Shown here piece after piece: positions 1,785-62,619 of a stretch of 64,000 nt of DNA. Within the stretch, counting starts at the first letter, position 1. The number at the start of each line of letters is the position of its first letter. The DNA is from Planctomycetota bacterium. GTDB taxonomy: Bacteria; Planctomycetota; UBA1135. Location of the stretch: the NCBI GenBank assembly GCA_003696625.1, contig RFGR01000023.1:8298-72297 (forward strand). Reading direction: 5' to 3'. A program made the translations under genes and the position numbers. The notes below the pieces were generated by a model. That model was given only the letters and a program-made list of their open reading frames with translations, was not told where the DNA came from and searched no databases.

Positions 1785-1837
1785 GGACGATTAGCCGCAA
1801 GTCTGGAAAGAATCGCTTCGGTGGTTTATCGAGGACC

Positions 1838-39938: not shown

Positions 39939-40036
39939 CGGGGCAGCCGAATCTAGCCGGTCCGGGCGGAAATCCACCGCCGGCGGTTCGGTCCCGCGGC
40001 GTAACATCGGTTTCCGGGACTTCCCAAAGATCGAAC

Positions 40037-42379
40037 ATGCCTTCCCGCGCCCGCCTCTTTCTCTCCCTGGCCGTCGTCCTGCCGGCGGCCGCCCTTCCGG
40101 CCCAGGATTCCCCGGCCGCCCACATGCCGTCGGACTCCTTCTTCTACGCCGAACTCGACCCGAACGCCCTGGACGCCGGGATCCACCAGCTCGACCTGGT
40201 CCGGCTGGCCGAGGATCCCGAGTTCTACGACTTCCTCCAGCCGCTCTTCGCCACCCTCGAGGCCGATCCGGCCCGGCCGGTGGATTCGCTGCTCGAGCGG
40301 GTTCCGGTCGGCGAATGGCTGGCCGGTCCGGCCGCGGTCGCGATCCGCGGCGCCCACCTCTGGATGCAGCGCCCCGACGGCGGCGAGACGCGGATCGCCG
40401 TCTCGCCCGACGACCCGCTCTCGGCCCGGGATCTATTCGATCTGGGCGGCCTGGCGGCCGCCCATGAACTCGACCAGCGCACGCTGCCGCCGGAGGAGCT
40501 GGCCGCCCGCTGGGATTTCGATCGGCTCGGCTGTGAGTTCGGCATCGACGGCGTGGCGGTTCTCGAGCCGGGACCGGCGCTGCGGGAGCTGGTCCAGGCC
40601 TTCCTGGCCGATCCCGGCGACCTCGCCGCGGCCATCCACGACATCCACGACGACGACATCGACGGCCGCCGGGTCACCCACGTCTCCTTCGAGTTCGAGC
40701 GCGACGGCGCCCTCGCCAGCGACCTCTACGCCGACCTGAACGGGCCGCGCTGGATCCTGGCCACCAATCTCGAGCTGTTCCGGGCCGCGGTGGAGCCCGA
40801 TCCGGACGATTCCCTGGCCACCGACCCGGCCTGGCTCCGGGTCCGGGAGCGGGTCGCGGCGGGGCGGACGCCCTTCTTCGTCTTCAGCCGCGACTACGGC
40901 GAACTGAGCCTGTTGCGCGGCTTCCTGCCGCCGATCCTGGCCGAGGCGGGCGACATCCTCGGCTGCGGCGGGACCGTCGGCAGCGGCGTGGCGCTGTCCC
41001 TGACCGAGGGCGGCATCCGCGAGAGTATCGGCGTCGTCCTCGATGGCGAGCGACGGGGCTTGATGCGTCTGCTCGACGCCTTCCCCGGCGGCATCGATCT
41101 GGCCGAAGCCGCCCCGGCCGGCGTGGCGGGCCTGGTGTCCCTGAAGTTCGACCCGGCCCTCCTCCACACCCGGCTGCTCGAAGTCGCGGACGAGATCCTG
41201 CCCGGCACCGCCGCCTCCCTGCGCCGGCTGCTGGCCGACGCCGCCGCCGAGGCCGGCTTCGACCTCGAGGGCCGGCTGCTGCGGGCCTTCGGCGACGAGA
41301 TCGCCTGGGTCCAGTTCCCGCCGGTCGGCCCGGTGGTGCCGGACTGGCTGCTCTCCATCGAGGTGCGCGACACGGCGGCCGCCCGCGCCCTGGTCGAGCG
41401 GCTGCTGGCCGACGCGGTCGAGCATGGCGCCCCGATCCACACCCAGCCGACCGAGGTGGAGGGAGCCGCCGCGGCCTGGCGGATCGCGATCGAAGAGGCG
41501 CCGATCCTGCCCCCGACCCTGGCCCTGGCCGAGGACCGACTGGTGTTGGCCGCGCGCGCCGACCTGGCCGCCGACGCCCTCAACCGCTGGGGCGAGGATC
41601 CGGGCGCCACGGTCGCCGCCAGCGAGAACTGGGGCCGGACCCTGCGCGGGCTGACCGGCGGCGGCGCCGATGACGTGATCCTGCTCGCCTACGCCGACCT
41701 CGGCGCGATCGCGCCGCCGGTCCTGGCGCTGACCCTCGGCTTGATTCCGCCCGAGTTCGCCGACGCCGCCGCGGCGCCGGAACCGGCCGCCTTCGGCGAG
41801 CGCCTGGGCGGCGCCGCCGTCGCCCTGCGCAGCAGCCCGGACGGCTTCTCGCTCGACACCTTCAGTCCGTTCGGAGTGTTGTTGCCCTCCTTCCTGGCGC
41901 TCGCCGCGAGCGGCGAGGTGCACCTGCCGATCGAGGAGCGCCCCGACGAGGAAGAGGTCGTTCTTGCGCCCTGGTCCGAAGCCAACACCTGGAACCAGGA
42001 GGCCTGGTACTCGGTCCGCTACGCCGGCGCCCCGGCCGAGCAATACGCCAGGGGACTGGCGGCGGCGAAGCGGGCGGTCGAACTCCAACCGGACAATCCC
42101 TGGTATCTGAACACCCTCGGCGTCGCCCTCTACCGGAACGGACACTACGAGGAGGCGCTGGCCACCCTGACCCGAAGCGACGAACTGAACCACGCCAACG
42201 GCATCGGCTACGATCCGGCCGGCGACGCGCTGTTCCAGGCCATGTGTCTGTGGCAGCTCGGCCGGCAGGAGGAAGCCCGCCAGCGCCTGGCCGAGTGCGA
42301 GGACCTGGTCGGCCCCGACAGCGACGAGGAGACTCTCACCTTCTGGGAGGAGGCCAAGGGGCTGATCCAGGCCGACTGA
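40037..42379 (+). CDS. Secreted hypothetical protein with C-terminal TPR repeats
   Basis: Signal peptide MPSRARLFLSLAVVLPAAALPAQ. The large N-terminal region has no motif I recognise. C-terminus has PWYLNTLGVALYRNGHYEEALATL (TPR). Confidence 0.6.
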   Translation: MPSRARLFLSLAVVLPAAALPAQDSPAAHMPSDSFFYAELDPNALDAGIHQLDLVRLAEDPEFYDFLQPLFATLEADPARPVDSLLERVPVGEWLAGPAAVAIRGAHLWMQRPDGGETRIAVSPDDPLSARDLFDLGGLAAAHELDQRTLPPEELAARWDFDRLGCEFGIDGVAVLEPGPALRELVQAFLADPGDLAAAIHDIHDDDIDGRRVTHVSFEFERDGALASDLYADLNGPRWILATNLELFRAAVEPDPDDSLATDPAWLRVRERVAAGRTPFFVFSRDYGELSLLRGFLPPILAEAGDILGCGGTVGSGVALSLTEGGIRESIGVVLDGERRGLMRLLDAFPGGIDLAEAAPAGVAGLVSLKFDPALLHTRLLEVADEILPGTAASLRRLLADAAAEAGFDLEGRLLRAFGDEIAWVQFPPVGPVVPDWLLSIEVRDTAAARALVERLLADAVEHGAPIHTQPTEVEGAAAAWRIAIEEAPILPPTLALAEDRLVLAARADLAADALNRWGEDPGATVAASENWGRTLRGLTGGGADDVILLAYADLGAIAPPVLALTLGLIPPEFADAAAAPEPAAFGERLGGAAVALRSSPDGFSLDTFSPFGVLLPSFLALAASGEVHLPIEERPDEEEVVLAPWSEANTWNQEAWYSVRYAGAPAEQYARGLAAAKRAVELQPDNPWYLNTLGVALYRNGHYEEALATLTRSDELNHANGIGYDPAGDALFQAMCLWQLGRQEEARQRLAECEDLVGPDSDEETLTFWEEAKGLIQAD

Positions 42380-42410
42380 GCGCCGGCGCCCGCTACCTTG
42401 AGGGGGTCGG

Positions 42411-44807
42411 ATGACCCTCCGCCCCCTCCTCGGCGCCCTTCGCTGGACCCTGGCCGCGGCGGCCGCGGTCCTCGTCGTGTGGTCCTTCGCCCGCGTTATC
42501 GGCCGCGAGCTGAAGAGTCCCACGGCCGCCGACGGCACGGTCGAGCTGACGGTCATGCACTGGTCCGGCGAGGGCGGCCAGGAAGAGGACCGGATCGTCG
42601 AGGGGCTGCTGCGCGCCTTCGAGGCCGAGCATCCGGGCGTGCGCGTGCGGCGCATCAATCCGGGCGACACCGGCAGCTACTACACCAAGCTGCAAACGAT
42701 GATGGCCGCCGGCGAGCCGCCGGACGTCTTCTACGTCGGCACCGAGCGGCTGGCCTCCTTCGCCGCCGCCGGCCTGCTGGCGCCGGTCGAGCCCTTCCTG
42801 GCGGAGGACGCCGCCGCCGCCGACCCGGCCGCACTCGACCTCGCCGACTTCTATCCGGCGACGGTCGACGCTTTCCGCTTCGACGGCCGCGTCACCGGCC
42901 GCGGCCCTCTTTACGGCATTCCCAAGGACTTCACCACCGTCGGCTTCTACTGGAACGCCGATCTCTTCCGCCGCGCCGGCGTGCCGCCGCCGGCGCCGGA
43001 CTGGACCTGGGACGACTTCCTGGCCGCCGCCCGCGCGATCGGCGACCTCGAGGATCCCGACGGCTCCCGCCCCTACCGCGGCGCCGAGTTCGTCACCTGG
43101 CCGACCATGGTCCGGCTCTTTCTGCGCACCTGGGGCGTCGATCTGGTCGATCCCGACTTCCGCCGGCTGCGCTTCGACGAGCCGGAGGTCTTCGCCGCCC
43201 TCGACCGGCTGCGATCCTGGCGCCACGATGAACCCCGCACCCTGACCAGCGGCAAGTCCCGGGTCGCGGCCGGGGCGAGCGTCTTCCGCACCGGCCGGGT
43301 CGGCATGGCCGGCCCCTTCGGGCGCTGGGTCGTGCCCGGCTACCGGCAGATCGAGGGATTCGAATGGGACTTCGCGCCGCTGCCGCGGGCGCCGGGGCGA
43401 CCGCCGGAGAACGTGGTCCTGACCGTCGCCTGGGCGGTCTCGAGCCGGAGCCGCCACCCGCGCCGGGCCTGGGAGTTGGTCCGCCACCTGTGCGGCCCCG
43501 AGGCCCAGGCCGCCGCCGCCCCACTCGGCCTGGCTGTGCCGACCCTGCGCGCGGTGGCCGAGAGCCCGGCCTTCCTTGACCCGGACCGGGCGCCGGCCAA
43601 CGACCGCGCCTACCTCGACCAGGCCGAGTACGCGCGCACGATCGACTGGCCGGCCGATCCCAAGTTCGAAGCGCTGCTCGGCTCGCGCCTGGACCAGGCC
43701 CTGAAGACCGGCGACTTGCCGCTGCCGGCGGCGATCGACGCCTTCACCGCGGCCTGGGAGAACGAGATCGCCTCGCCGTTGGCGCGCGGCGGCTTCCCGC
43801 CGATGCCGTGGGACCGGATCGTCGCCGTCACCGCCGGCCTCGGCGGCGCTCTCCTCCTCTTCGGCCTGGCCTGGTGGTGGCGGCGCCGACCCGGCCGCCT
43901 GGCTCTGCGCGAGGAGCTGGCCGGCTGGTTGGTGATCTCGCCCTGGTTGATCGGTTTCCTGGTCTTCCTCGCCTTCCCGATCGGCCTGTCCCTGCTCCTC
44001 AGCCTGGCCCGTTGGAACGGGGTCGCAGGCCTCGATCGGGCCGAGTGGGTCGGCCTGGCCAACTACGCCCAGCTCCTCGGCCACGACGACCGCTTCCGGG
44101 TCTGCCTGCGGGTGACGGCCTACTACGCGCTCCTGGCCGTGCCGCTCGGCCAGGCCTTCGCGCTGGGCGCGGCGCTGCTGATGAACCAGCGCGTGCGCGG
44201 GATCGGTTTCTTCCGCGGCGCCTGGTACCTGCCGAGCGTGCTGGCCGGGGTCGGGGTGGCGGTGCTCTGGCGCTGGGTCTTCGACGGCGATCACGGCCTG
44301 CTCAACGCCGCCCTGAGGCCGCTGCTCGCCCCCTTCGGGCTGACTCCGCCCGACTGGTTCGGCGCCGACGCCGCCTGGTGGGGGCCGCCGGCCTTCGCCC
44401 TGATGAGCCTGTGGACCGTCGGCGGCTCGATGATGATCTACCTGGCCGGCCTCAAGGGCATCCCGCGCGAGCTGTACGAAGCGGCCGAGATCGACGGCGC
44501 CGGCTGGTGGCGCCGCTTCCGCTCGGTCACCCTGCCGATGCTGTCGCCGGTGATCTTCTTCAACGGCATCATGGCGGTGATCGGCAGTTTCCAGGTCTTC
44601 ACCCAGGCCTTCGTCATGACCGGCGGCGAGCCCGGCGACCTGACCCGCTTCTACGTCCTCTACCTCTACAACCAGGCCTTCGAGTTCTACGAGATGGGCT
44701 ACGCCTCGGCCCTGGCCTGGCTGCTCCTGCTCGTCACTCTGGCCCTGACCCTGGTGGTCATGCGCGGCTCGAGGCGGTTCGTCCACTACGAGGCCCTGCA
44801 GTCGTGA
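42411..44807 (+). CDS. Carbohydrate ABC transporter: membrane-anchored solute-binding domain fused to a MalF/UgpA-type permease
   Basis: aa 1-470 form an SBP family-1-like region (LTVMHWSGEGG, YYTKLQTMMAAGEPPDVFY, IPKDFTTVGFYWN). A TM helix follows, then a permease with the EAA-like loop YEAAEIDGAGWWRRFRSVTLP. Confidence 0.8.
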   Translation: MTLRPLLGALRWTLAAAAAVLVVWSFARVIGRELKSPTAADGTVELTVMHWSGEGGQEEDRIVEGLLRAFEAEHPGVRVRRINPGDTGSYYTKLQTMMAAGEPPDVFYVGTERLASFAAAGLLAPVEPFLAEDAAAADPAALDLADFYPATVDAFRFDGRVTGRGPLYGIPKDFTTVGFYWNADLFRRAGVPPPAPDWTWDDFLAAARAIGDLEDPDGSRPYRGAEFVTWPTMVRLFLRTWGVDLVDPDFRRLRFDEPEVFAALDRLRSWRHDEPRTLTSGKSRVAAGASVFRTGRVGMAGPFGRWVVPGYRQIEGFEWDFAPLPRAPGRPPENVVLTVAWAVSSRSRHPRRAWELVRHLCGPEAQAAAAPLGLAVPTLRAVAESPAFLDPDRAPANDRAYLDQAEYARTIDWPADPKFEALLGSRLDQALKTGDLPLPAAIDAFTAAWENEIASPLARGGFPPMPWDRIVAVTAGLGGALLLFGLAWWWRRRPGRLALREELAGWLVISPWLIGFLVFLAFPIGLSLLLSLARWNGVAGLDRAEWVGLANYAQLLGHDDRFRVCLRVTAYYALLAVPLGQAFALGAALLMNQRVRGIGFFRGAWYLPSVLAGVGVAVLWRWVFDGDHGLLNAALRPLLAPFGLTPPDWFGADAAWWGPPAFALMSLWTVGGSMMIYLAGLKGIPRELYEAAEIDGAGWWRRFRSVTLPMLSPVIFFNGIMAVIGSFQVFTQAFVMTGGEPGDLTRFYVLYLYNQAFEFYEMGYASALAWLLLLVTLALTLVVMRGSRRFVHYEALQS

Positions 44808-45664
44808 GTCGCCGCCGCCGCCGCCTGCTCCCCTACCTGCCCCTGGCGCTCGGGGCGGCGGTGATGCTGTTCCCGCTCTGGTGGATGCTGGTGATCAGCC
44901 TCGAGACCCCCGGCCGGGCCGGGGCGGCCGCCGCCGGCGGCGGCATCGACTGGTTCCCGGCCGACCCGCAGTGGCGCAACTACGCCGAGGCCCTGGCCCA
45001 GCTCGGCACCCGGCGCTGGCAGGGCTTCCTCGACGCCTTGGCCAACTCGGTGGTCGTCACGGCGCTGACGGTGGTCGGTCAGGTGCTGTCCTGCAGCTTG
45101 GTCGGCTACGGCTTCGCCCGCATCCGCTTCCGCGGCAGCCGGCTGCTGTTCGTGGTCATGCTGGCGACCATGATGCTGCCGCCGCAGGTGACGATGATCC
45201 CGCTGTTCCTGCTCTTCCGTAGCCTCGGCTGGGTCGACACCATCCTGCCGCTGGTGGTGCCGGCCTTCTTCGGCAACGCCTTCTTCATCTTCCTCTTCCG
45301 CCAGTTCTTCGCCCAGGTGCCCGAGGCGCTGGTCGAGGCCGCCCGCATCGACGGCTACGGCCACCTCGGCATCTGGTGGCGGGTGATGCTGCCGCTGTGC
45401 CGGCCGGTGATCGCGATCTGCGCCGTCTTCACCTTCATCTTCGCCTGGAACGACTTCCTCGCCCCTTTGATCTACCTGCACGGCGAGGAGCAGGCCACCC
45501 TGGCCGTGGCGCTGAACTCCTTCCGCAACCAGTACGGCGGCTTGGAGGACGTCCACCTGCTGATGGCGGTCTCGATCGTCACCATGGTGCCCTGCATCGC
45601 CCTGTTCTTCGTCGCCCAGAAGCAGTTCGTCGAGGGGCTGGGCAAGGGGGCGGTCAAGGGCTGA
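44804..45664 (+). CDS. Carbohydrate ABC transporter permease (MalG/UgpE-type)
   Basis: GTG at 44804 overlaps the upstream stop (GTGA). EAA loop VEAARIDGYGHLGIWWRVMLP. Six hydrophobic segments. Confidence 0.85.
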   Translation: MSRRRRRLLPYLPLALGAAVMLFPLWWMLVISLETPGRAGAAAAGGGIDWFPADPQWRNYAEALAQLGTRRWQGFLDALANSVVVTALTVVGQVLSCSLVGYGFARIRFRGSRLLFVVMLATMMLPPQVTMIPLFLLFRSLGWVDTILPLVVPAFFGNAFFIFLFRQFFAQVPEALVEAARIDGYGHLGIWWRVMLPLCRPVIAICAVFTFIFAWNDFLAPLIYLHGEEQATLAVALNSFRNQYGGLEDVHLLMAVSIVTMVPCIALFFVAQKQFVEGLGKGAVKG

Positions 45665-45679: not shown

Positions 45680-48600
45680 TCAGCCCGCGGGCGGCGCCAA
45701 CTCGCGGCCGCCGAGGAAGACCTCGCCGGTCCGCCCGTGGATGGTCAGGACCTCGCCCTGGCGCAGTTCGACCGGCTCGCCGCCGCCGGGCGGCATGATG
45801 CGGGCGCCGCCGCCGGGCCGGATCTCCAGTCCGTTGACGCTCATCACCGCCGAGTAGGAGCGGCCGACCAGGCCGTTGGCGGCCACCGCGGCGTGGGCGG
45901 TGGAGCCGCCCTTGACCGTCATCAGCCCCTGGGCGGAGAGGATGAAGGGGATGTCCTCCGGCGCCGGGTTCTCCAGCACCAGCAGCACGCCGTCGACGTC
46001 CTCGCGCTCGGCCGCGACCGGTTCGAGTTCGGCCAGGCCCTCGGGGCTGAAGGCGACCAGACCGCGGAAACCGCCGCCGCAGACGCCGATGCCGCGGGTC
46101 AAGGGGTCGCCCGGATCGACCAGCTCGCGCACGACCTGGCCGATGCCGGCGGCGGCGGTGCGGCACTGGAGCACGGACAGCACCCCGCGCTCGACCGTGA
46201 ACTCGACCTCCTGGTCGGTGCCGAAGAAGCGGCGCAGCTTGGCGACGATATGGCGCAGCCGCGCCTCGAGCAGCGGCATGGTCTCGTCCAGGCTCGCGAT
46301 CGGCAGGAAAGAGCGGGTGACGCCGCCGACCAGGTCCTCGCCGGCGGCCGAGAACTTGATGTCGCCGACCAGTTCGCGCAGACCGCGTTCGTCGATCCGG
46401 GTGCGCGAGACGACCCCCGTCAGCGAGGCGGCGGCCTCGTCCATGCCGGGCCGGATCTCCTCGTTCGGATAGTTGCCGAAGGCCATCTCCTGGACCACCA
46501 CCGCCGTATGCCAGGTGTCGCAGTAGTCCTTCAGCTCGCGGTAGCGGCGGGTGGTCTCGGCGTCCCAGGAGGCCAGCACCGCCTCGACCGCGGCCAGGAG
46601 CTGACGGCGCGGCTCGGCCAGCAGCCGATCGAGTTCCTCGCCGTGGCCGGCGTCGCGGATCGCCGCCTCCATCTGATCGGCGACCTCGCGCAAAGCCTCC
46701 CAGGGCAGGTCGGACTTGTTGGCGACCCCGTAGCGCTTCTTGGCCGCGTCGACCAGGCCGTGCGTCTCCAGGTCAAGGCGCCAGAAGTCGAAGGCGAGAG
46801 CGCCGAGGAAGCGCCGGTAGCAGTCCCAGGCCCGCCACGGGCCGTCCTCCTCACGGGCCAGACGCTCGGTGATGGCCCGGTTCATGCCCAGGAAGAGGAC
46901 CGTGTCCAGGATCCCCGGCATCGAGAAGACGCTGCCGCCGCGGACGGCGAGCAGCAGCGGCGACTCCTCGTCGCCGAGCCGGCGGGCGACGCCGTCGCGG
47001 CGCTCGAGGTCGGCCTCCAGCCGCTGCAGGTGCTCCTCGACCAGCTCGGCCAGGTCCGGCCCCCGGCCGCGCCGCCGCGCCCGGCCGATGGTGGTCGGCA
47101 GCACGAAGCCGTCCCGGGTCGGAATGTTCAGGTAGGAGATGTAGAGCAGGCTCGAGCCCTTGCCGCCGTAGTAGTCGCGGACGCAGCGCCCGCGCTCGTG
47201 GCGTTCGATCTCGGCCGCGATCGCCGCCCGATCGGACAGGTGCAGCACCGGCGCCTCCGGCAGCGGCCCGCCGTTGCCGGCGCAGGCCGCGCCGGCGCCG
47301 CTCTCGCGCAGCCAGGCGCCGGCCAGGTCGGCGAAGGCGGCCATCGAGTTCAGGTCGTGCATGTAGCGCTGGAGGTTGGCCAGCACCCCGCGCAGCCGGT
47401 CGGGATCGAGGCCGAGCTTCTCCCGCAGCGCCTCGAACGGCGCCGTCACCCGCTGCAGGACCATGTGGTAGCCGCGGCTGATGGCGCCGAGGGCGTTGAG
47501 CAGCTCCTTGCCGCCGCGTCCGGGCGCCGCCAGCAGTTCGGCCAGGTCGGCCAGGTCGCGGCTCTGCAAGCCGGCGAAGCGCAGGTTGTGGGCGCAGAGC
47601 CGGATGACCTCGAGGCACTGCTCCAGATCGACCCCCTGCTCGGCGAAGCGAGCGGCCAGGTGGCGCAGGCTCAGGTAGCCGATCTCCTCGAGCAGGCAGT
47701 CGAGTTGGGAGGCCAGGAAGGCCTGGAGGCGGAAGCCGCCGCCGCGGCGCGGCTCGATCAGGGAGGCGCGCAGCTCGGCGAGGCAGCGGAAGGCCTCGAA
47801 CCACTCCCCCTCCTCATAGAGACCGACCGCGCGTTCGAGATCGTGGAACAGTCCGTCCTGATGGACCGCCCGGACCCCGGCCGTGAAGTCGGCGGCCGCC
47901 TGCTTCAGGCGCTGCTCGGCCGCTTCCGGGTCGAAGCCCTCGACCTCGGGGTGGCACCGCTCGAGTTCGGCCAGCTCGGCCAGGAAGGCGGCGCCGGGGC
48001 CGCCGTCGGCGGCGAACTCCTCCGCCTTCTCACGCAGGATGCGCAGGTGGTGGAGATAGGACCAGCGGTTGCGCTCGCGGATGCCGTCGCTGACCAGGGC
48101 CGCCACCTCGTCGTCGACCAGGTGGCCGAAGCGGCAGCGGAGCAGGGCGTCGGCGTAGGTCTCCTGCCAGGAGCGCAGGCGCTCGACCACCTCGGCCTGG
48201 CCGAGCAGCCGGGCCAGGTCGTCGACCAGCACCTCCATCAGACCGCGCACCTGCGGCAGCGACCTGGCCCGCTCGTCGGCCGGGCCGGGCGCCGGCAGGC
48301 CGACGGCGGCGAGCGGCGCCGGATCGCCGTCGGCCAGCCAGGATCGGTAGGCCTTGACCATCTCCAGGGTCCGGTCGCCGAGCGCGTGGTGGCTGCTGCG
48401 CCGGATCTCGTTGACGATGGCGCTGCCCCGCACCTGCACTTCGGCCAGGTCGATGGTCGCGTTCCAGACCCGGTCGATCACCTTCGGCTGGCCGAGCAGG
48501 GCCGACAGGTTGCGGACCATGACCCGGGTCAGGAAGGACAGCCGATGGCAAAGCGGACCCTCGAGGAAGCGGGAGAGTTGCCGTTCCAGGTTGCGCAGTT

Positions 48601-51600
48601 CCGGCTGCAGGTTCTTGGCCCGCATGAACTCCTGGGCCTCGGCCCCGGCCAGGCGGGCGGTCAGGTGGCGGAGCAGGAAGTTGGCCTCGCTGCGGTTGGT
48701 GCAGTCGTTGATCCGCTGCAGCAAGGCGACCACGTCGCGCAGTCGTCGGACCGGGCGCAGGTCGGTGCGGTCTGGGTCGAAGCGGAAGATCAGCTCCTCG
48801 AGATCGACGACCTCTCCCTGGAAGCCGCCGCGGGCGAGCAGGGCGGCGTCGGTCAGGATCGCCCCCGGCTGCGGCACCCAGGAGTCGATCGCGCGCACCT
48901 CGCCGCCCTGGACGACGTGAAGGATGCACTCGCCGTCCACGATCCAGGGCATGAGCAGACCCTCGCCGCGATAGAAGCGGTTGTTGACCAGGCCGAGCGG
49001 CCGCTCCCGCCGGGCCAGCGCGCTCTTCAGCTCCAGGTAGGCGCGGAGGGCCCGCCGCTGCTCCTTGTCGCCGCCACGCAGCCAGGCCCGCTCGAAGTCG
49101 CGCTCGACCTCGACCAAGCGCGCGACCTCCTCGGCGCTGAAGGCGGTTGGCAGCAGGCCGGCCGTGTCCTCTGGGGCCGGCGGTTCCGAGGCGGACGGGG
49201 TTTCGGGCGCCGGCGCCGGCGGCGCCTCGCGGCGGGCGGCCGTGATCGCGGCCACCGCCCGCTCGAGCGACTCGGCCGGCAGGCTGCGCCGGTCCTCGAG
49301 CACGGTCCGGGCCAGGCGTCCGGCCGCCTCCGGGCCGGACGGCAGATGGCCGACGGCCAGCAGAGCCGCGGCGGCGGCGGCGGCCGCGCCGTCGGGCTCG
49401 GCGGCGGCGGCCAGTTCCCGGCCGACCGCCTCCTCGATCTCCGACCGCCGGTCGGCCAGGGCCGGGAATTCGCCGACCAGCTCGTCGAGCACCGCCCGGG
49501 CGCGGGCGGCCTCGTCCAGCCCTGCCGGCGGCGCGGCCGGCGTCGGAGCCGGCGGGGCGCCCCCGCCGGCCGCCGTCTCGACCTCGTAGAGGCCGGCGAT
49601 CGCTCGCAACTCCTCATGCAGCACACCGCCCTTGGCCGCCAGGGCGGCGGCGGCGGTGCGGAGGGCGGCGACGGCGTCCTCGAAGGTCGGACCGGCCGGC
49701 TCGACGCCCTGGGCCGAAGCGAAGCGCTCGATCAGCGCCAGCATTTCCTCCCGCAGCAGCTCGTAGAGTTCCTTGCCGCGCAGGTGCGCCGCCGCCCGGG
49801 CCAGCGCCAGCGAGGCGGACAGGATCGCGTTCATGCCCAGGTTCTGCTTGCGCTGCATGACCCGAATCCGATCCGCCGGACCGGCGTCGGCGGCGATTTT
49901 TCCGCGCTGCCGGGCGACTTCGAGTTCCAGCCCGAGCAGGGCGCGGTCGATGTCGACCAGGCCGAGGCGGGCCGGATCCTGGCCCTGGAAGCGCGGGGCG
50001 ATCCGTTCGAGGACGTTTTCGACCGCGGTCAGGCAGCCCTTGCCCTGGTAGCGTTGGGCGCGGCGGAACAGTTCGGCCAGGTCGGGATCCTCGGCGCGAC
50101 GGATCTCCGGCTCCTCGACCTCTTTGCGGAAGGCGAAGACTCCGGGTTCGGTCTCCTCGAACAGCTCGCGGTGGCGGGTGATCACCTCGCGGTGCTCGGC
50201 CCCTTCGATCACCGAATCGACCAGGTGGATCGCCTCACCCTCGCCGGCCGAGGTGCCGAGCGGGGTGGCGCCGCGGAAGCGCAGGCCGACCCCGGCTCCG
50301 GCCAGCTCGAGATCGACCTGGGCGCCGACGGTCGGGATGCCGGCGTTGGTCGGCTCCTCCCAGGCGCGCAGGCCGCGGACCCGGGCGGCGCCGGCGGCCG
50401 GCGGCGTCCGGTCGCCCTCGTCCCCGATCCGCAGCATGGTCTCGGTCACGGCCTGGTACTTGACCAGCCGCTCGGTGTTGGCGCCGCCGCCGCACTTCAA
50501 CCCGAGGGCGTTGGCGGCCAGGGCGATCTGGGCCTCCATGTCGTCGTTCGGGCTCTTCGAGCGGTGCGAGACCACCAGCTCCTGGTTCTTGCCGAGGGCG
50601 ACCAGCATCGCCAGCAGGGTCTCGTACAAGGTGCCGATCTGGTTGGCCTTGATCAGGGCGGCGTTGCACAGTCCCTGGTCGGCGGCGCGCTCGATGGTGC
50701 CGTCGTTGGTCGTCACCAGGTCGTCGCCGATGATGAAGATGCGGTCGCCGAGGCGGGCGCGGATGTTCTTCCAGCCCTGGTCGTCGTGCTCGGAGAAGGC
50801 GTCCTCGATCGACAAGATCGGGATCTCGTACTCCTCGATCGCCTTGACATAGAGTTCGAGGACGGCGTCGCGGTCGAGCACGGTCTTGGCCTTGTCGCGC
50901 CAGAACAGGTACATGCCGACCGCGTCCGGTTGGTTGAACTCCCGGCGGTAGGCGATCTCCAGCTCGCTCAGGGCCGGGTCGAGGGCGATGGCGACGTCCG
51001 TGCCCGGACGCAGGCCGCACTCCTCGATCGCCTGCTTGAGCATCGCCCACAGCCGCAGCTCCGGTACCGGATAGGGGCCCTTCTCGATGTAGGGCGCCAG
51101 GCCGCCCTCGAGGCCGATCCCCATCACCCGACAGCCTTCCTCGTTCTCGATGATCTCCTTGAGGCGGGTCTGGAGGCGGATGGTCGTCTCCTGCGCTTCC
51201 TGGTAGTCGGCGGCGCCGAGGATCAGGAACATCGCCTCCTGCATCGAGATGTTCGATTCGGGGTATTCCTTCTCAGTGTGCCGGCCGCCCATGCCGCAGT
51301 TGCGGAACTGCCAGGGCGCGGTCACCGGCCCGAGCAGGGGATGGACCGCCCGCTGCATCCGGTTGGCGAGCATGTGCTGCTTCATCTCGGCGGCCCGGGC
51401 CGACCAGCCGGAGGCCTTCTCGACCTCGGCGGCTTTCTCCCGCGCCAGCCGTTCCCGGCGCTGGAATTCGCGATACTTGCCCGGGTCGGCGAGCAGGAAA
51501 TCGAGCAGGCCGACGGTCCCCAGGCCGAGGCAGAGACGGCCGAGGTAGAGGGCGGCCAGTGACGGCAGCAGCAGTCCGACCGCCAGCAGCAGCGCCGCCG

Positions 51601-52177
51601 GCGGCAGGAAGCACAGCGCCAGGTTGCGGCTGGCCCGCGGCCCGGCCGCCGCCACCGCCAGGTTGTAGGGAGCGTCCGGGTAGTAGTTCAGGCCCTCCTT
51701 CTTGACCCCGTCGGCCTTACCCCAGGGGATGCGCAGGAACAGGCCGAAGAGGAACAGCAGCCGGCCGAGCCCCTTCTTCTCCAGCCCCGGGCGGACCCGC
51801 TCCATCGCCGCGTCGTTGAGCGCGTTCAGGCGGGCGGCGGTCAGGAAATGGCCGAGTTCGTGCCAGGCCACGCCGGTGTGGAAGGTGATCAGCACGAACA
51901 GCGCCGAGACCAGCGTCTCCGGGCTGAGGAAGATGAAGCGCAACACCTCGCCGCGCGGGATCTCGCCCAGGGGCAGCGCCAACACCGAGGAGATGAAGGC
52001 GACGTGGAAGGCGACCAGGATGTGGTTCGCGATCACCCAGCCCTCGTGCAGGGCGGCCCGTTCGGGGCCGTGGGCGCGGGCACGGAGGAAGCGGAGGGAA
52101 GTCAGGGGATTCCGGCGGCCGGCCATGGCGCGAATCGATCGTGAAGGGGGGAAGGGGCGCCCGGGGAGGACCGTCAT
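45680..52177 (-). CDS. Giant membrane-anchored multidomain protein: HExxH membrane domain, circularly permuted enolase, about 850-aa helical region, PPDK/PpsA-type ATP-grasp and phosphohistidine swivel domain
   Basis: See finding 1. Motifs are WHELGH; SIEDAF, IGDDLVTTN, LIKANQIG and SHRS (enolase barrel); PLGTSAGEGEAIHL and YQGKGCLTAVENV (enolase N domain); YYGGKGSSL and EVEFTVERGVLSVLQCR (PPDK N domain); VKGGSTAHAAV (His domain). Start is 52177 or the ATG at 52126. Confidence 0.85.
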   Translation of the reverse strand: MTVLPGRPFPPSRSIRAMAGRRNPLTSLRFLRARAHGPERAALHEGWVIANHILVAFHVAFISSVLALPLGEIPRGEVLRFIFLSPETLVSALFVLITFHTGVAWHELGHFLTAARLNALNDAAMERVRPGLEKKGLGRLLFLFGLFLRIPWGKADGVKKEGLNYYPDAPYNLAVAAAGPRASRNLALCFLPPAALLLAVGLLLPSLAALYLGRLCLGLGTVGLLDFLLADPGKYREFQRRERLAREKAAEVEKASGWSARAAEMKQHMLANRMQRAVHPLLGPVTAPWQFRNCGMGGRHTEKEYPESNISMQEAMFLILGAADYQEAQETTIRLQTRLKEIIENEEGCRVMGIGLEGGLAPYIEKGPYPVPELRLWAMLKQAIEECGLRPGTDVAIALDPALSELEIAYRREFNQPDAVGMYLFWRDKAKTVLDRDAVLELYVKAIEEYEIPILSIEDAFSEHDDQGWKNIRARLGDRIFIIGDDLVTTNDGTIERAADQGLCNAALIKANQIGTLYETLLAMLVALGKNQELVVSHRSKSPNDDMEAQIALAANALGLKCGGGANTERLVKYQAVTETMLRIGDEGDRTPPAAGAARVRGLRAWEEPTNAGIPTVGAQVDLELAGAGVGLRFRGATPLGTSAGEGEAIHLVDSVIEGAEHREVITRHRELFEETEPGVFAFRKEVEEPEIRRAEDPDLAELFRRAQRYQGKGCLTAVENVLERIAPRFQGQDPARLGLVDIDRALLGLELEVARQRGKIAADAGPADRIRVMQRKQNLGMNAILSASLALARAAAHLRGKELYELLREEMLALIERFASAQGVEPAGPTFEDAVAALRTAAAALAAKGGVLHEELRAIAGLYEVETAAGGGAPPAPTPAAPPAGLDEAARARAVLDELVGEFPALADRRSEIEEAVGRELAAAAEPDGAAAAAAAALLAVGHLPSGPEAAGRLARTVLEDRRSLPAESLERAVAAITAARREAPPAPAPETPSASEPPAPEDTAGLLPTAFSAEEVARLVEVERDFERAWLRGGDKEQRRALRAYLELKSALARRERPLGLVNNRFYRGEGLLMPWIVDGECILHVVQGGEVRAIDSWVPQPGAILTDAALLARGGFQGEVVDLEELIFRFDPDRTDLRPVRRLRDVVALLQRINDCTNRSEANFLLRHLTARLAGAEAQEFMRAKNLQPELRNLERQLSRFLEGPLCHRLSFLTRVMVRNLSALLGQPKVIDRVWNATIDLAEVQVRGSAIVNEIRRSSHHALGDRTLEMVKAYRSWLADGDPAPLAAVGLPAPGPADERARSLPQVRGLMEVLVDDLARLLGQAEVVERLRSWQETYADALLRCRFGHLVDDEVAALVSDGIRERNRWSYLHHLRILREKAEEFAADGGPGAAFLAELAELERCHPEVEGFDPEAAEQRLKQAAADFTAGVRAVHQDGLFHDLERAVGLYEEGEWFEAFRCLAELRASLIEPRRGGGFRLQAFLASQLDCLLEEIGYLSLRHLAARFAEQGVDLEQCLEVIRLCAHNLRFAGLQSRDLADLAELLAAPGRGGKELLNALGAISRGYHMVLQRVTAPFEALREKLGLDPDRLRGVLANLQRYMHDLNSMAAFADLAGAWLRESGAGAACAGNGGPLPEAPVLHLSDRAAIAAEIERHERGRCVRDYYGGKGSSLLYISYLNIPTRDGFVLPTTIGRARRRGRGPDLAELVEEHLQRLEADLERRDGVARRLGDEESPLLLAVRGGSVFSMPGILDTVLFLGMNRAITERLAREEDGPWRAWDCYRRFLGALAFDFWRLDLETHGLVDAAKKRYGVANKSDLPWEALREVADQMEAAIRDAGHGEELDRLLAEPRRQLLAAVEAVLASWDAETTRRYRELKDYCDTWHTAVVVQEMAFGNYPNEEIRPGMDEAAASLTGVVSRTRIDERGLRELVGDIKFSAAGEDLVGGVTRSFLPIASLDETMPLLEARLRHIVAKLRRFFGTDQEVEFTVERGVLSVLQCRTAAAGIGQVVRELVDPGDPLTRGIGVCGGGFRGLVAFSPEGLAELEPVAAEREDVDGVLLVLENPAPEDIPFILSAQGLMTVKGGSTAHAAVAANGLVGRSYSAVMSVNGLEIRPGGGARIMPPGGGEPVELRQGEVLTIHGRTGEVFLGGRELAPPAG

Positions 52178-52231: not shown

Positions 52232-53344
52232 ATGGCGGAGATCCGGCTCGACCAGGTGGCCAAGGTCTACCCCGGCGGCGTCCGGGCGGTGGACCGCGTG
52301 GACCTGGTCGTGGCCGACGGCGAGTTCGTCGTCCTGGTCGGCCCCTCCGGCTGCGGCAAATCCACCACCCTGCGGATGGTCGCCGGCCTCGAGGAGATTT
52401 CGGAGGGCACGATCGCGATCGATGGCCGGGTGGTGAACGAGGTGCCGCCCAAGGACCGCGACATCGCCATGGTCTTCCAGAACTACGCTCTCTATCCCCA
52501 CATGACGGTGCGCCGGAACCTGGCCTTCGGCCTCGAGCGCCGCCGGCGCCATCGCGGCCTTCTGGCCCGGTTCGGTGCCGCCGCCCGAACCGAGCGGGCG
52601 GCGATCGAACGCCGGATCGAGGAGACGGCCGCGCTGCTCGGCATCGCCGCCCTGCTCGAGCGCAAGCCGGGCCAGCTCTCCGGCGGCCAGCGCCAGCGGG
52701 TGGCGGTCGGGCGGGCGATCGTGCGCGACCCCGCCGCCTTCCTCTTCGACGAGCCGCTCAGCAACCTCGACGCCAAGCTGCGGGTGGAGATGCGCGCCGA
52801 GCTGAAGGCGCTGCACCGCCGCCTCGGCGCCACCACCCTCTACGTGACCCACGACCAGGAGGAGGCGATGACGCTCGGCGATCGCCTGGTCGTGATGAAG
52901 GACGGCGTGGTCCAGCAGGTGGCGCCGCCGGCCGAGGTCTACGACCGGCCGGCCAACCGCTTCGTCGCCGGCTTCGTCGGCACGCCGCCGATGAACTTCC
53001 TGGCTGGGCGGCTGGAGGCGGCGGACGGTTGCCTGCGGCCGGCGCCGGGCGGCGACGAAGTGATCGGCCTGCGGCCGGACGCGCTCGCGCCGCTCGCGCC
53101 CGGCGCCGCGCCGCCGCCGGGCCGGATCCTGCTCGAGGGCGAGGTCGTGACCATCGATCACCTCGGCGACCGGGCCGACGTCTTCTTCCGCCTGGACGGC
53201 CGGGAGGGCCTGTTCATCTGCCGCGCCCCGGCCCGGCCGCCGGTGGCGGAGGGCGCCCGCGCCCGCTTCACCGCCGATCCGGCCGCCGCCCACCGCTTCG
53301 CCGCCGGGGAGACCGGCGCGCGGCTGGGATCAGCGTCCCCCTGA
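52232..53344 (+). CDS. Sugar ABC transporter ATP-binding protein (MalK/UgpC/MsmX type)
   Basis: Walker [11 protein letters not shown]-loop, signature LSGGQRQRV, Walker [12 protein letters not shown] and a C-terminal TOBE-like region. Confidence 0.9.
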
Positions 53345-55342
53345 CGGCATCGGCGGCCCACATTGCTGGACCTCGATCTCCTGGACCGGGGCGGAGCCGA
53401 CGACCCAGGTCTGGTCCGAGAAGGCCTCCTGGATCCGGCTGCCGGCGGGGACGCCGTGGATGACGAAGTTCCCTTCAGCGTCGCAGACGGTACCGAGGCA
53501 GTTGAAGGCGTTCCAGGGCATTCCGCGCCACTCGCGGATGCTGAAGCCGATGATCTTGAGTCGCGCGAGTTCCTCCGGCGGACCAAGGTAACGACCGGCC
53601 AGGGTGACACCTGGCCGGGTCCGGACGACCTGATCCAGGCCGCCGGGGGGAACCGTCATCACCTCCAGGGCGGACGGGAGCGGTCCCCTCTCGAGGGGGA
53701 GCCGGCCATCCGGCAAGAGCACGAACTGGTATCGGCCGGCCGGGATCTCGCCAGCGATGGTCTCCTCGGCCGACCGGACCTGGAACGAGCCCTTGAGCAG
53801 GGGGAGGTCTTCCCCAGGACGGATGAAGTGCCAATGGTAGGTGATACCGACCGAGGAATCCGGGAAGCCGACGGTGAGGCGGACCGAAGCGAGGTCGGTG
53901 TCCACCGGCATCGAGAACTCGAGCAGCCGGCCATCCCCGATCTCGTAGGACCGATTGTCCGATGGATTCGCGAACCGCGCCCGCTCGGGCAGCGCCTCAT
54001 CGAGGGCGGGCCATGGCCGGCGCAGGATGTTCCAGCGTCCCGGCTCCATTCCCAGGATCTTGTTCCTCCGCCCGACGGGGAAGGGAACCGCACCGACGAA
54101 TCCGGCCAGCGGATCGGGGAAGCCCCGAAGTGGAGCCAGGTTGAACTCCGGCCAGGACTCCGGCGGCCCCGGCTCGATCCCGATCTCGGCCCCGCTCTGA
54201 TCCACGAGGAAGGGATGGAAGACCACGGGTGCCGACACGGCCGGAACGACCAGGCCGAGGTCGGAGCCCCAGCCGGAGCCGACCTCGGCGAGTCGGGCGG
54301 CGATGCACCAGGTGTCCCCTGCCTGCCAGAGCCCATCCACCCGGTATTCCCCCGGCGCGAGTCCGGCGAAGACGAACTCGCCCTCCCCGTTCGGCACGGC
54401 CCGCTGGACGAAGACCGCCCGCTGCTTTTCCCACTGGAGCCGGTACAACCTCACCAAGGAGATGCTGGCCGGACCGGGCAGGGAGGAGAGATCGAGTCGG
54501 CCGCGAATCGTTCCCGCGCCGACCAATCGAAGCCGGAGAACGACCCTGCCTCCAGGTGGCAGGTCCAACCAGTGGTCCGGGTTCTCGCTGACGAGCGGCA
54601 GCGCCGAGGCCCAGCGATACCGATCACCCGCGGGAAGGGTGACCTGGATCGGCTCCTCCCCGAGAGGGATCTGCCGGGGGATCTCGACCAGGGGCCGCCA
54701 GGACGGGGCGGTCCGCTGGGCCGCCGCCGCCAGGAAGGCTCGGACCGGTTCAGGCTGGTCCAGCCCGGAGAGCGGGTGCAGGCCCAGGACCTCGGGAGGC
54801 GGCATGAGATCGAGCGTCCTGGCCTCCTCCTCGAGCGGAAGGCTGGCGCCAGGATCGACGACCAACTCGATCTCGAGATCCGAACCGGCCGGGAAGACCA
54901 CCTCGATGTCCCGCCCCTCGGTCGCGGCTGGCCAAGCCAGGAGGAGCGGGAGGTGCCCGGGGGCGGTGACCATCGCCGCGCCGGCGGCCCCGGCCGGGAC
55001 GGACCAGTCCTTCACTGGCCCATCGCCGGGACCGGAACCGATCCGGGACGGATCGGCCAGTTCGAGCAGGACCGGCGAGGCCTCGAGCGCGGTTCCGTTC
55101 ATGTCGTCCACCCACCGGAACCGCCAAGGTCTCGGTTCCCGTTCGGTCGCGGTGCGACGAGGGGCAGGGATCTCGGGCGGCGGGGAGGCCGAAAGTTCCA
55201 CGGCCCCGACCAGAGGTGCCATCACGGGCGGAGGCCCTTCGGACCTGCCTTCTTGGCCGGCCGAGAGGATTCGCCAGGCCAGAAAGGGCAGTCCGAACAG
55301 GAAGAGGACCGCCGGGAGAAGATACCGTCGATTCGCCCTCAC
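53330..55342 (-). CDS. Membrane-anchored hypothetical protein with carboxypeptidase-regulatory-like beta-sandwich repeats
   Basis: N-terminal [19 protein letters not shown]. Segments such as GTIRGRLDL...[18 protein letters not shown] are typical of CarboxypepD_reg-like folds. Confidence 0.55.
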
Positions 55343-55345
55343 GGC

Positions 55346-55528
55346 TCAGTTCAGGGTGATCATCCCGTTCGCCGCCAAGTCTCCCTCCGCCGTAGCCGTG
55401 ACCACGCCGGCGAGCCAGTTTCCATCCGCTGCCACTGCACCGTGGACTGCCGGCGTGATGGTCATGTCGTAGATCTCACCCAGGGAGGTCTGGAGCACGC
55501 TCTTCGCCCCAGCAGTGGCGCCGGTCAA
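55346..55528 (-). CDS. Small hypothetical ORF (60 aa, TTG start), possibly the frameshifted C-terminus of the upstream gene
   Basis: TTGA overlap with the stop of ORF 55525..56028. Gly/Ala/Thr-rich, beta-strand-like. No independent support. Confidence 0.3.
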   Translation of the reverse strand: MTGATAGAKSVLQTSLGEIYDMTITPAVHGAVAADGNWLAGVVTATAEGDLAANGMITLN

Positions 55529-56028
55529 TCGGGATCACCGGAACCGCCTTGGGTTCCTTGGTTCGTCGCCAGTTGGATGTCTTCCTGGCCATGGGCGGTC
55601 GACCAGGAGTGCATCCTGAGATCATAGGCCCCGGATGCTTCCGGCATGCCCAGGATCGAGCCGGAGTAGGAGAAGAAGAGGTGTCCCGCGCCACTCAGGG
55701 AGCTGTTCTCGAGGATGGTGCCGGCGCCCGAGCCCGTGTATCGCCAGGTCTCGCCGCCGGTCTGGGCAACGGCGATCGAGAAGGTCATGACCGCCGCGGT
55801 CTTGTCCTGAGCGGTGGTCTCGAGTACGGCCTGGGACCGGCTGGCGTACCCCAAGGCATACACGTACCAGGATGACGACCCGGCCTCGACCTCCTGGAGG
55901 ACGGGGTCGGGGTCGTTCGACTGCCCGGTCCAGTTCGGGCCGTGGGTGAGGACCACTCCTCTGGGCACGATCTGGGCGGCGGCGGGGAGGGAGAGAACGG
56001 CGGAGCAGAGGACAGCAGACAGGATCAT
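55525..56028 (-). CDS. Secreted hypothetical protein
   Basis: ATG at 56028 gives the signal peptide MILSAVLCSAVLSLPAAAQ. No motif recognised. Confidence 0.5.
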   Translation of the reverse strand: MILSAVLCSAVLSLPAAAQIVPRGVVLTHGPNWTGQSNDPDPVLQEVEAGSSSWYVYALGYASRSQAVLETTAQDKTAAVMTFSIAVAQTGGETWRYTGSGAGTILENSSLSGAGHLFFSYSGSILGMPEASGAYDLRMHSWSTAHGQEDIQLATNQGTQGGSGDPD

Positions 56029-56104
56029 GAATGGAAGGGCGGCCACACGAGCAGCTCGGGTGGCGAAGAACCTCCCCCCCCCGTCCACGAAATCAAGGTC
56101 GGCG

Positions 56105-58012: not shown

Positions 58013-58028
58013 GTTCTCCGAAACAAGC

Positions 58029-58057
58029 GGGGCGGCGCCGGGTTCCGGCGCCGCCCC
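58029..58057 (-). terminator. Candidate intrinsic terminator after paralog A
   Basis: Perfect 13-nt inverted repeat GGGGCGGCGCCGG/CCGGCGCCGCCCC, followed on the minus strand by CTTGTTTCGG. Confidence 0.55.
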
Positions 58058-58096
58058 TTACACACCCATCCAGGGGGATGAACGGATGGAGGGGGT

Positions 58097-59149: not shown

Positions 59150-59162
59150 GGGTTGCGGGGGC

Positions 59163-60212: not shown

Positions 60213-60232
60213 GGCGGAGCGGGGCGGTCGGG

Positions 60233-62437: not shown

Positions 62438-62492
62438 GATGGATGGATGCTACCGGAAATTCCGGGCGCGAACGGGGCGGTTTTGAAATTTC

Positions 62493-62533
62493 CGCCAGGA
62501 TTTCATTAAACCCTGGCGGATACCGCGCCAGGG
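62493..62533. promoter_or_regulatory. Candidate operator in the divergent GH13 / CBM48-ArsR promoter region
   Basis: Three copies of CGCCAGG/CCTGGCG (62493-62499, 62512-62518 and 62526-62532), the last two forming CCCTGGCG-N7-CGCCAGGG. A separate palindrome CCGGAAATTCCGG lies at 62453-62465. Confidence 0.35.
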
Positions 62534-62619
62534 TCTATTCTACCCCGGAACAAGCCCCGGACCTTGCGTCTCGGCCGGAGCTTGCCCCCTCTCCTCCGGC
62601 TTCCCATCCTCTGCCTCCC

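Follow-up and report, generated by a model that had tools for sequence, protein, structure and literature searches.

A conserved membrane-anchored protein joining a circularly permuted enolase to a PPDK-type phosphotransfer cassette

The window analyzed here is a stretch of 64,000 nucleotides from a Planctomycetota bacterium (GenBank assembly GCA_003696625.1, contig RFGR01000023.1, positions 8,298 to 72,297 of the forward strand), and all coordinates below are those of the window. Between two permease genes (42411-45664, plus strand) and the gene for a MalK-like ATPase (52232-53344, plus strand), its minus strand contains a single open reading frame (ORF) coding for 2165 amino acids (aa). The giant protein is a fusion of two semi-autonomous modules, each of which also exists as a separate gene. 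Module A (aa 1-862, ~850 aa) consists of a membrane domain, a permuted enolase and a short helical tail, and module B (aa ~1013-2165, ~1180 aa) consists of a beta/helical domain, an ATP-grasp domain and a swivel domain with His2095. The gene is organized as follows.

45680..52177, minus strand: whole ORF, 2165 aa and stop codon, uninterrupted; probable start Met18 at 52126
51473..52045, minus strand: N-terminal membrane domain, aa 45-235 (hydropathy, conservation, weak Pfam M50 match, AlphaFold)
50417..51307, minus strand: enolase TIM-barrel domain, aa 291-587, ahead of the enolase N-domain (Pfam, NCBIfam, phmmer, conservation)
49748..50380, minus strand: enolase N-terminal domain, aa 600-810, behind the barrel (Pfam, phmmer)
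49592..49747, minus strand: C-terminal helices closing module A, aa 811-862, kept in fused forms
49142..49591, minus strand: Ala/Pro-rich linker, aa 863-1012, aligning with the edges of an HD domain in longer relatives
47198..49141, minus strand: family-specific beta domain and alpha-helical solenoid, aa 1013-1660 (AlphaFold, conservation; no Pfam family)
46148..47197, minus strand: PPDK-type ATP-grasp, aa 1661-2010 (Pfam, NCBIfam, PPDK alignment, superposition)
45683..46147, minus strand: linker and phosphohistidine swivel domain, aa 2011-2165, with the His2095 codon at 45893-45895

The existence of one 2165-aa ORF had been proposed by a first-pass annotation made from the sequence alone, and several lines of evidence bear it out. 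Long ORFs occur on both strands of the window (G+C ~72%); the codon-position G+C content of the giant ORF (0.76/0.47/0.94) is typical for real genes of such composition, the pattern holds along the whole ORF, and the third-position value of 0.94 resembles that of the neighboring genes. An antisense ORF of 1941 codons (45737..51562, plus strand) has a low-complexity Ala/Gly/Arg/Leu translation and was rejected as a high-GC artefact. Met18 is the start chosen by the gene caller.

Among 5.8 billion proteins searched, more than 120 homologs of 2000-2360 aa proved to be colinear and to have the same four Pfam domains, so that the fusion is conserved; among them P0034, P0037 and P0039 are colinear over 98% of the length, some such matches being at 51-55% identity. 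Scanning one genome per species, we found relatives in 268 species-level genomes from about ten phyla, with modules A and B fused in most of them. Identity across phyla is ~55% overall and 60-79% in the enolase module. Since full-length colinear homologs and relatives in 268 genomes are available, assembly chimerism is excluded as the source of the architecture, and the 2165-aa protein is the product of a real conserved gene. All genome records listed for the family are metagenome-assembled genomes (MAGs), and the homologs are labeled in databases as 'enolase', 'PEP/pyruvate-binding domain-containing protein' or hypothetical protein. No NCBIfam model matches the giant protein at or above its cut-off, and our literature searches for a permuted enolase-dikinase architecture found neither a description nor a curated family model, in line with the first-pass statement that no characterized protein of this kind was known.

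Domain architecture of the giant protein

The enolase of module A is circularly permuted. Pfam Enolase_C matches aa 293-587 (E 2.5e-45), the NCBIfam enolase profile TIGR01060 is matched at positions 139-408 (213.5 bits vs the equivalog cut-off of 300), and Enolase_N is recognized behind the barrel (E 6.8e-13). In a phmmer comparison with enolase 4mks, aa ~291-578 correspond to enolase residues 146-407, aa ~604-654 to residues 8-53, aa ~708-742 to residues 57-91, and aa ~776-808 to residues 102-134. Thus the barrel aligns first and three segments of the N-domain follow in order, which confirms the permutation suggested earlier, together with an insert of ~55 aa (aa ~655-707) between the first and second N-domain segments.

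The catalytic apparatus of enolase is complete. In particular, the metal ligands are D400, E458 and D485 (D246, E295 and D320 in yeast numbering), and the catalytic residues are E357 and K510 (E211 and K345); the barrel also contains H300 (H159), E314 (E168), H538/R539/S540 (H373/R374/S375) and K561 (K396), among which H300, R539 and S540 bind phosphate, and S643 in the N-domain is equivalent to Ser39. Comparing 30 and 61 relatives, we found no variation in any of the residues for metal binding, acid/base catalysis or phosphate binding; the first-pass annotation had aligned most of the metal and catalytic positions. The AlphaFold model of aa 18-880 (pLDDT 77) consists of a helical membrane bundle followed by an enolase fold, which Foldseek matches to enolases with E about 1e-11. 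We infer that the enolase of module A is catalytically competent.

The membrane domain contains four strongly hydrophobic helices in aa 45-235 and resembles the M50 or site-2-protease (S2P) type. Hydrophobic helix 2 ends on the cytoplasmic side with an invariant HELGH motif (aa 106-110, 51848-51862), the motif AAGPRASRN is also present, and the sequence LLDFLLAD in helix 4 carries D226 and D231. H106, E107, H110 and D226 are invariant in 61 sequences, and so is D231 (D214 in P0001). Hydropathy and the positive charge in the N-terminal, central and C-terminal segments around the helices indicate an N-in/C-in topology; with both termini in the cytoplasm, all enzyme domains would be cytoplasmic as well. 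AlphaFold models the domain as helices and a beta-hairpin.

The earlier description of this region as polytopic with an M50/M50B-like HExxH motif holds for the motif, which is invariant and lies in a membrane helix, but the M50 assignment itself is weak. Pfam PF02163 (Peptidase_M50) matches the giant protein with E 0.04-0.07 (12.9-13.5 bits vs a cut-off of 27.2) and only at profile positions 2-27, that is, the HExxH helix. The same family weakly matches the N-terminal segments of all 13 relatives compared, the best match (E 4.5e-4) still being below the cut-off. A PDB profile search with the membrane domain produced no S2P match, and the Foldseek list for the module A model is filled by enolases; neither search was informative on M50 membership. 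The third zinc ligand of canonical site-2 proteases is an Asp residue in the NxxPxxxLDG motif of a later membrane helix; D226 is invariant, yet this canonical context is absent around it. We call the domain only M50-like.

In module B, Pfam recognizes PPDK_N (E 8.8e-12) and PEP-utilizers (aa 2062-2151, E 1.4e-6). Among the ATP-grasp residues, K1673 and R1746 are equivalent to K22 and R92 of PPDK, and counterparts of E323, Q335 and R337 occur in the segment EVEF...LQCR; the SMPG loop, YRRF and GEDLVGG motifs are present, and the catalytic residues of this domain are invariant in relatives. In comparison with Clostridium symbiosum PPDK, the glycine loop, T453 and the catalytic His455 have equivalents as well, the last being His2095 in the swivel motif GGSTAHAAV (G-G-x-T-x-H-A-A type); this His residue is unchanged throughout 38-61 sequences. 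In the AlphaFold model of aa 966-2165 (pLDDT 85.9, pTM 0.84), a small beta domain and a long helical solenoid come ahead of the ATP-grasp and the swivel domain, with the His domain docked on the nucleotide domain. It superposes on PPDK structure 1kbl (E 6.8e-24, root-mean-square deviation 4.0 A, 567 columns), with a weaker structural match to rifampin phosphotransferase. Alignment, domain matches and superposition thus agree with the first-pass assignment of a PPDK-type ATP-grasp and swivel histidine (codon 45893-45895), and the profile and PDB sequence searches, together with the two models, bear out the domains that it named.

The protein stops at the equivalent of PPDK residue ~511, where the PPDK barrel would start. 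The NCBIfam PPDK profile is matched only at positions 13-338 of 865, Pfam finds no phosphoenolpyruvate (PEP)/pyruvate TIM barrel (PEP-utilizers_C) in the giant protein, and no such barrel is seen in the model of aa 966-2165, which upholds the earlier conclusion that the barrel is missing.

The middle region, initially regarded as ~850 aa of helical sequence with no recognizable motif, turned out to be composed of the linker, the small beta domain and a conserved helical solenoid; it is a conserved new dikinase-associated domain. The helical part gave no significant structural match, no PDB sequence match and, in 9 of 9 members, no Pfam match. We also considered a hidden PEP barrel in this region and rejected it, the region being all-helical in a confident model and lacking PDB, fold and Pfam matches. 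Its beta/helical domain contains 33 invariant residues, mostly charged or polar and common to fused and stand-alone forms of module B, including R1259, R1260, H1263 and H1264 (RRxxHH), N1370, W1372, E1497 and H1646. Profile comparison also detected remote similarity (probability 96-97%) to the helical regions of certain bacterial proteins, in which HEAT repeats occur together with a phosphohistidine domain of the alpha-glucan water dikinase (GWD) type and PPDK_N. We interpret the beta/helical domain as a putative site, belonging to the dikinase cassette itself, for binding a ligand or a partner.

Modules A and B are joined by an Ala/Pro-rich linker, in which the C-terminal model begins, with pLDDT values below 50. 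At this point, relatives of about 2290-2360 aa have ~250 extra residues with HD phosphohydrolase motifs; in P0107 the Pfam HD domain is found at aa 886-991 (E 8.3e-5), and other long members of this type are P0004, P0011, P0014, P0018, P0080, P0082 and P0108. The H...HD...D motif set does not occur in the window protein, which has only the Ala/Pro-rich stretch at aa 863-1012. Since this linker aligns with the edges of the HD domain in longer relatives, it is probably a degenerate HD remnant. The two-module construction, the conserved helical domain and the HD domain in some relatives go beyond the first reading of the sequence.

In many short-read MAGs (L007/L104, L008/L106, L053/L111, L029/L152, L043/L143) contig ends fall within the linker, and thus annotation pipelines often report the gene as two partial genes. 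Apparent 'split' genes of this origin were left out of the count of true splits given below.

Modules A and B as separate genes and their genomic context

Genuine A-only genes were found in Dehalococcoidia (L048, L072 and L083). Their products retain the HExxH motif, the Asp residue, all enolase residues and the insert in the N-domain, and the helices corresponding to aa 811-862 extend right to the stop codon. Of 284 positions invariant in fused proteins, 213 are preserved in all four A-only proteins compared, and only 7 are changed in at least three of the four. Every A-only or full-length gene examined encodes the membrane domain together with the enolase. Retention of the insert in A-only proteins led us to reject it as a docking site for module B. 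The gene next to A-only L072 encodes phosphoenolpyruvate carboxykinase (PEPCK). At another Dehalococcoidia locus (L075, 6085-11085), a 1666-aa protein has two tandem units, each of a membrane domain and a permuted enolase, and is followed by serA; this tandem protein possibly corresponds to an enolase dimer in covalent form.

Stand-alone B proteins are about 1150-1265 aa long and retain all 33 invariant residues of the beta/helical domain. Only 93 proteins among 1.84 billion representatives are detected by a profile of the helical domain; they include complete B-only proteins of 1160-1198 aa, which start shortly ahead of this domain and possess PPDK_N as well as the swivel domain. No position of this domain separates fused from stand-alone B, and a wider search for residues that would tell fused from stand-alone modules yielded almost none in the comparisons of either A or B.

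Modules A and B are encoded by adjacent separate ORFs in L034/L154, L086 and L090. In 14 loci B occurs without A within the examined 2.4-4 kb upstream, and at least one MAG carries a B-only gene in addition to a full-length one. Recurrence of fusion and adjacency argues for a shared pathway of A and B. B-only genes lie beside genes for a TPR-HisKA_2 histidine kinase and a response regulator in two Aminicenantes MAGs (L102, 1662-3889; L142, 1713-3940), and in a third MAG beside a gene for a TPR-GGDEF protein (L127, 7401-9011), which hints at a signaling role for such B paralogs.

In the window, the giant gene sits in an alpha-glucan locus with two GH13 enzymes (37503-45664 and 52232-63468), which comprises the following genes.

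37503-40007, minus strand: GH13 enzyme with CBM48
40037-42379, plus strand: TPR protein
42411-44807, plus strand: solute-binding protein fused to a permease in one ORF
44786-45664, plus strand: second permease
52232-53344, plus strand: MalK-like ATPase
60233-62437, minus strand: GH13 branching-enzyme-like protein with a PPC domain
62443-63468, plus strand: ArsR-type helix-turn-helix protein with a CBM48 domain

The gene does split a maltodextrin-type ABC locus, as noted in the first-pass annotation, having the permease genes on one side and the MalK-like ATPase gene on the other. To compare neighborhoods, ORFs were called in 83 loci and clustered by all-against-all BLASTP, and 80 related loci were counted. 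Conservation of the neighboring genes was not found: no neighbor family is present in more than 8 of the 80 loci, none of the families is related to glucans or glycolysis, and three loci inspected with gene calls have no neighbor in common. The commonest neighbor clusters are Ser/Thr kinase-TPR proteins, acyl-AMP ligases/acyltransferases, molybdopterin oxidoreductases, DUF480 proteins, aminotransferases and alpha-2-macroglobulins. No canonical enolase or PPDK is encoded in the 1.96 Mb of family loci, which are loci and not whole genomes.

Two functional links proposed initially, to alpha-glucan metabolism and to a pathway of cyclic 2,3-diphosphoglycerate, are dropped as properties of the family, since the neighbors are not conserved. 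The second link came from a gene 42 kb away. This ORF (1745-3172, plus strand, 475 aa) has weak P-loop matches in Pfam, none in NCBIfam, and, as the sole support, one weak match (E 0.0017, 20.5 bits) to the solved cyclic 2,3-diphosphoglycerate synthetase 9sxb, an archaeal enzyme of which a bacterial relative would be of interest in its own right.

Two other ORFs of the window deserve mention. One (15-1784, plus strand), running off the window start, is an unusual fusion of a DedA/VTT membrane domain (UptA-like) with a cyanophycin-synthetase-like ATP-grasp. The other (34367-36049, plus strand) has weak sub-cut-off Pfam matches to an MtrC/MtrF-like domain and cytochrome c7, which suggests a multiheme cytochrome.

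Possible functions of the enolase-dikinase protein

We favor, with a probability of about 0.35, a membrane-tethered enolase combined with a PPDK-derived phosphotransfer cassette that acts on a PEP-related acid, the acceptor site being likelier in module B than in the enolase pocket. Module A would be a cytoplasm-facing permuted enolase, held at the membrane by an S2P/M50-like metal-binding helical bundle and interconverting 2-phosphoglycerate and PEP. In module B, the ATP-grasp would load a phosphoryl group onto His2095 of the swivel domain, which would move it between the adenine-nucleotide site and a three-carbon acid of the enolase reaction, PEP and pyruvate being the likeliest substrate pair. 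The PEP/pyruvate TIM barrel would have been replaced by the family-specific beta and helical domain with its conserved Arg/His-rich site, so that the second half-site would lie there and not deep in the enolase pocket. Lower glycolysis or gluconeogenesis would then have two of its consecutive steps on one membrane-bound polypeptide.

This proposal is consistent with the closest relative of module B being PPDK, both by NCBIfam and by superposition. Enolase and PPDK both handle PEP, fused enzymes often share one pathway, and dikinase cassettes are known to be reused with different target domains. Similarly, PEPCK and serA beside stand-alone A genes place the module in central-carbon contexts. 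An intrinsic ligand site in B fits the 33 invariant, mostly polar residues kept in both fused and stand-alone B, and the fully canonical phosphate-binding residues of the enolase pocket favor ordinary chemistry of 2-phosphoglycerate and PEP over an unphosphorylated acceptor.

Several points weigh against this proposal. We know of no precedent for an all-alpha pyruvate/PEP half-site. Stand-alone B occurs at loci without A, and one MAG has full-length and B-only copies together; because B-only genes occur without A, B may act on something unrelated to enolase. Some B-only genes adjoin TPR-histidine kinase/response regulator or TPR-GGDEF genes, hence the hint at signaling. The invariant HExxH...D site is left unexplained by a coupled enolase and dikinase. 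Finally, the two AlphaFold models each represent one half of the protein (aa 18-880 and aa 966-2165).

A more specific version of the proposal appears unlikely as it stands. Here a PPDK lineage without the barrel would use the all-alpha Arg/His-rich domain or the enolase pocket in its place and convert 2-phosphoglycerate via PEP to pyruvate, forming ATP from AMP and pyrophosphate (PPi), or would run in reverse, and the S2P-like metal site might gate or exploit this reaction. If true, uncultured anaerobic lineages would widely possess a so far unknown enzyme that catalyzes the last steps of glycolysis.

It is possible, although doubtful, that B is a modular dikinase for some other acceptor bound by its helical/beta domain, such as a hydroxy-acid, a phosphoglycerate, a polymer or a protein, with the enolase coupled loosely through supply, co-localization or regulation. 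Reuse of such cassettes in rifampin phosphotransferase, to which the model has a structural match, and in GWD is in agreement with this, as are the remote similarity of the helical domain to regions of GWD-like bacterial proteins, the B-only genes away from A, the optional HD phosphohydrolase domain beside B in long forms, and the position of the window gene inside an alpha-glucan locus. However, across phyla B is as a rule fused to the enolase module or adjacent to it, Pfam found no carbohydrate-binding module (CBM) in the giant protein, and the glucan context is not seen in the 80 other loci.

The first-pass model, in which the swivel histidine delivers phosphate into the enolase barrel, so that the same pocket would process, for example, glycerate or pyruvate once phosphorylated, seems to us improbable. 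The enolase barrel is the only recognizable small-molecule barrel of the protein, it binds PEP, the ligand of the lost PPDK barrel, and A and B are usually fused. Nevertheless, module A is practically the same with or without B (7 of 284 positions), its N-domain insert is also present in A-only forms, and the preserved H300, R539 and S540 fit a ligand that is already phosphorylated. B-only proteins, in turn, keep all 33 invariant residues of the helical domain with no enolase attached, and the near-identity of stand-alone and fused A points the same way. The view of the enolase barrel as the only candidate acceptor site is thus not supported.

Similarly improbable is a regulated intramembrane metalloprotease of the site-2-protease type, whose enolase and dikinase domains would sense glycolytic flux, adenylate or PPi status. 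Parallels would be the ATP-binding cytoplasmic CBS domain of SpoIVFB or the regulatory swivel domain of Bacillus pyruvate kinase. The HExxH motif and the downstream Asp in the membrane helices are invariant even in A-only forms, the M50 signal is weak but consistent, the membrane domain always accompanies the enolase in the A-only and full-length genes examined, and some B-only genes adjoin signaling genes. PF00391 swivel domains can be purely regulatory: in Bacillus pyruvate kinase the extra C-terminal domain of this family is allosteric, and its His residue is dispensable (PMC11834443). On the other hand, the match to M50 does not reach the Pfam cut-off, no S2P match came from the PDB profile search, all catalytic residues of both enzymes are kept at 55-79% identity across phyla, which is beyond the needs of ligand sensing, and no conserved substrate or anti-sigma neighbor was observed among the loci compared.

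Lastly, the chance that the ORF is an assembly chimera or a set of genes joined by error is negligible: gene breaks at contig ends in the linker (L007/L104, L008/L106 and L053/L111) and frameshifts in some long-read MAGs could be cited for it, but the full-length homologs come from independent assemblies and sources, a relative is present in 268 species genomes, and codon-position composition is that of a real gene over the entire ORF.

Comparison with known systems

Few enzymes of central metabolism have been studied as thoroughly as enolase and PPDK, and the architecture of enolase is considered nearly invariant. Both enolase and modular dikinases are known in themselves; what is new here is the combination of a membrane anchor, a permuted enolase and the front half of PPDK, in a family seen only in uncultured organisms. 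If the modules are catalytically coupled, many bacteria of sediments, groundwater and soils would have an unrecognized means of running or controlling the PEP node. In that case the scoring of 'enolase' and 'PPDK' in metabolic reconstructions of MAGs would also change, because the giant protein is now labeled simply 'enolase' or 'PEP/pyruvate-binding domain-containing protein'. The new conserved helical domain tied to dikinases is a clear target for structural work.

PPDK (Clostridium symbiosum structures 1kbl and 1dik, TIGR01828) has the ATP-grasp and swivel domains in the same order, with the same catalytic residues and ~27% identity. The giant protein differs from it in ending after the swivel domain, without the PEP/pyruvate TIM barrel, and in having a beta/helical domain of ~650 aa before the ATP-grasp, in addition to the enolase and the membrane anchor. 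With canonical enolases (TIGR01060) it shares both domains, all catalytic, metal and phosphate-binding residues and ~30% identity to the bacterial enzymes; it is distinguished by the barrel coming first, the ~55-aa insert in the N-domain, the extra C-terminal helices, the membrane tether and a score under the equivalog cut-off.

The modular dikinases rifampin phosphotransferase and GWD also combine an ATP-grasp and a His carrier with a non-PEP domain. In GWD, however, the His domain precedes the ATP-grasp, whereas the order in the giant protein is the opposite, and the latter has neither a CBM nor a rifampin-binding domain. To our knowledge, no member of the modular dikinases carries an enolase.

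Site-2 proteases such as SpoIVFB resemble module A in the HExxH motif at the cytoplasmic end of a helix, an invariant Asp residue in a later helix that may correspond to their zinc ligand, an AAGP-type motif and an attached cytoplasmic domain, as judged against the motifs of SpoIVFB and RseP. The giant protein differs from them in falling below the Pfam threshold and in having LLDFxLAD in place of NxxPxxxLDG. Finally, Bacillus pyruvate kinase is likewise a PEP-metabolizing enzyme with a swivel-type domain (PMC11834443), but it has no ATP-grasp, whereas the giant protein has a complete nucleotide domain.

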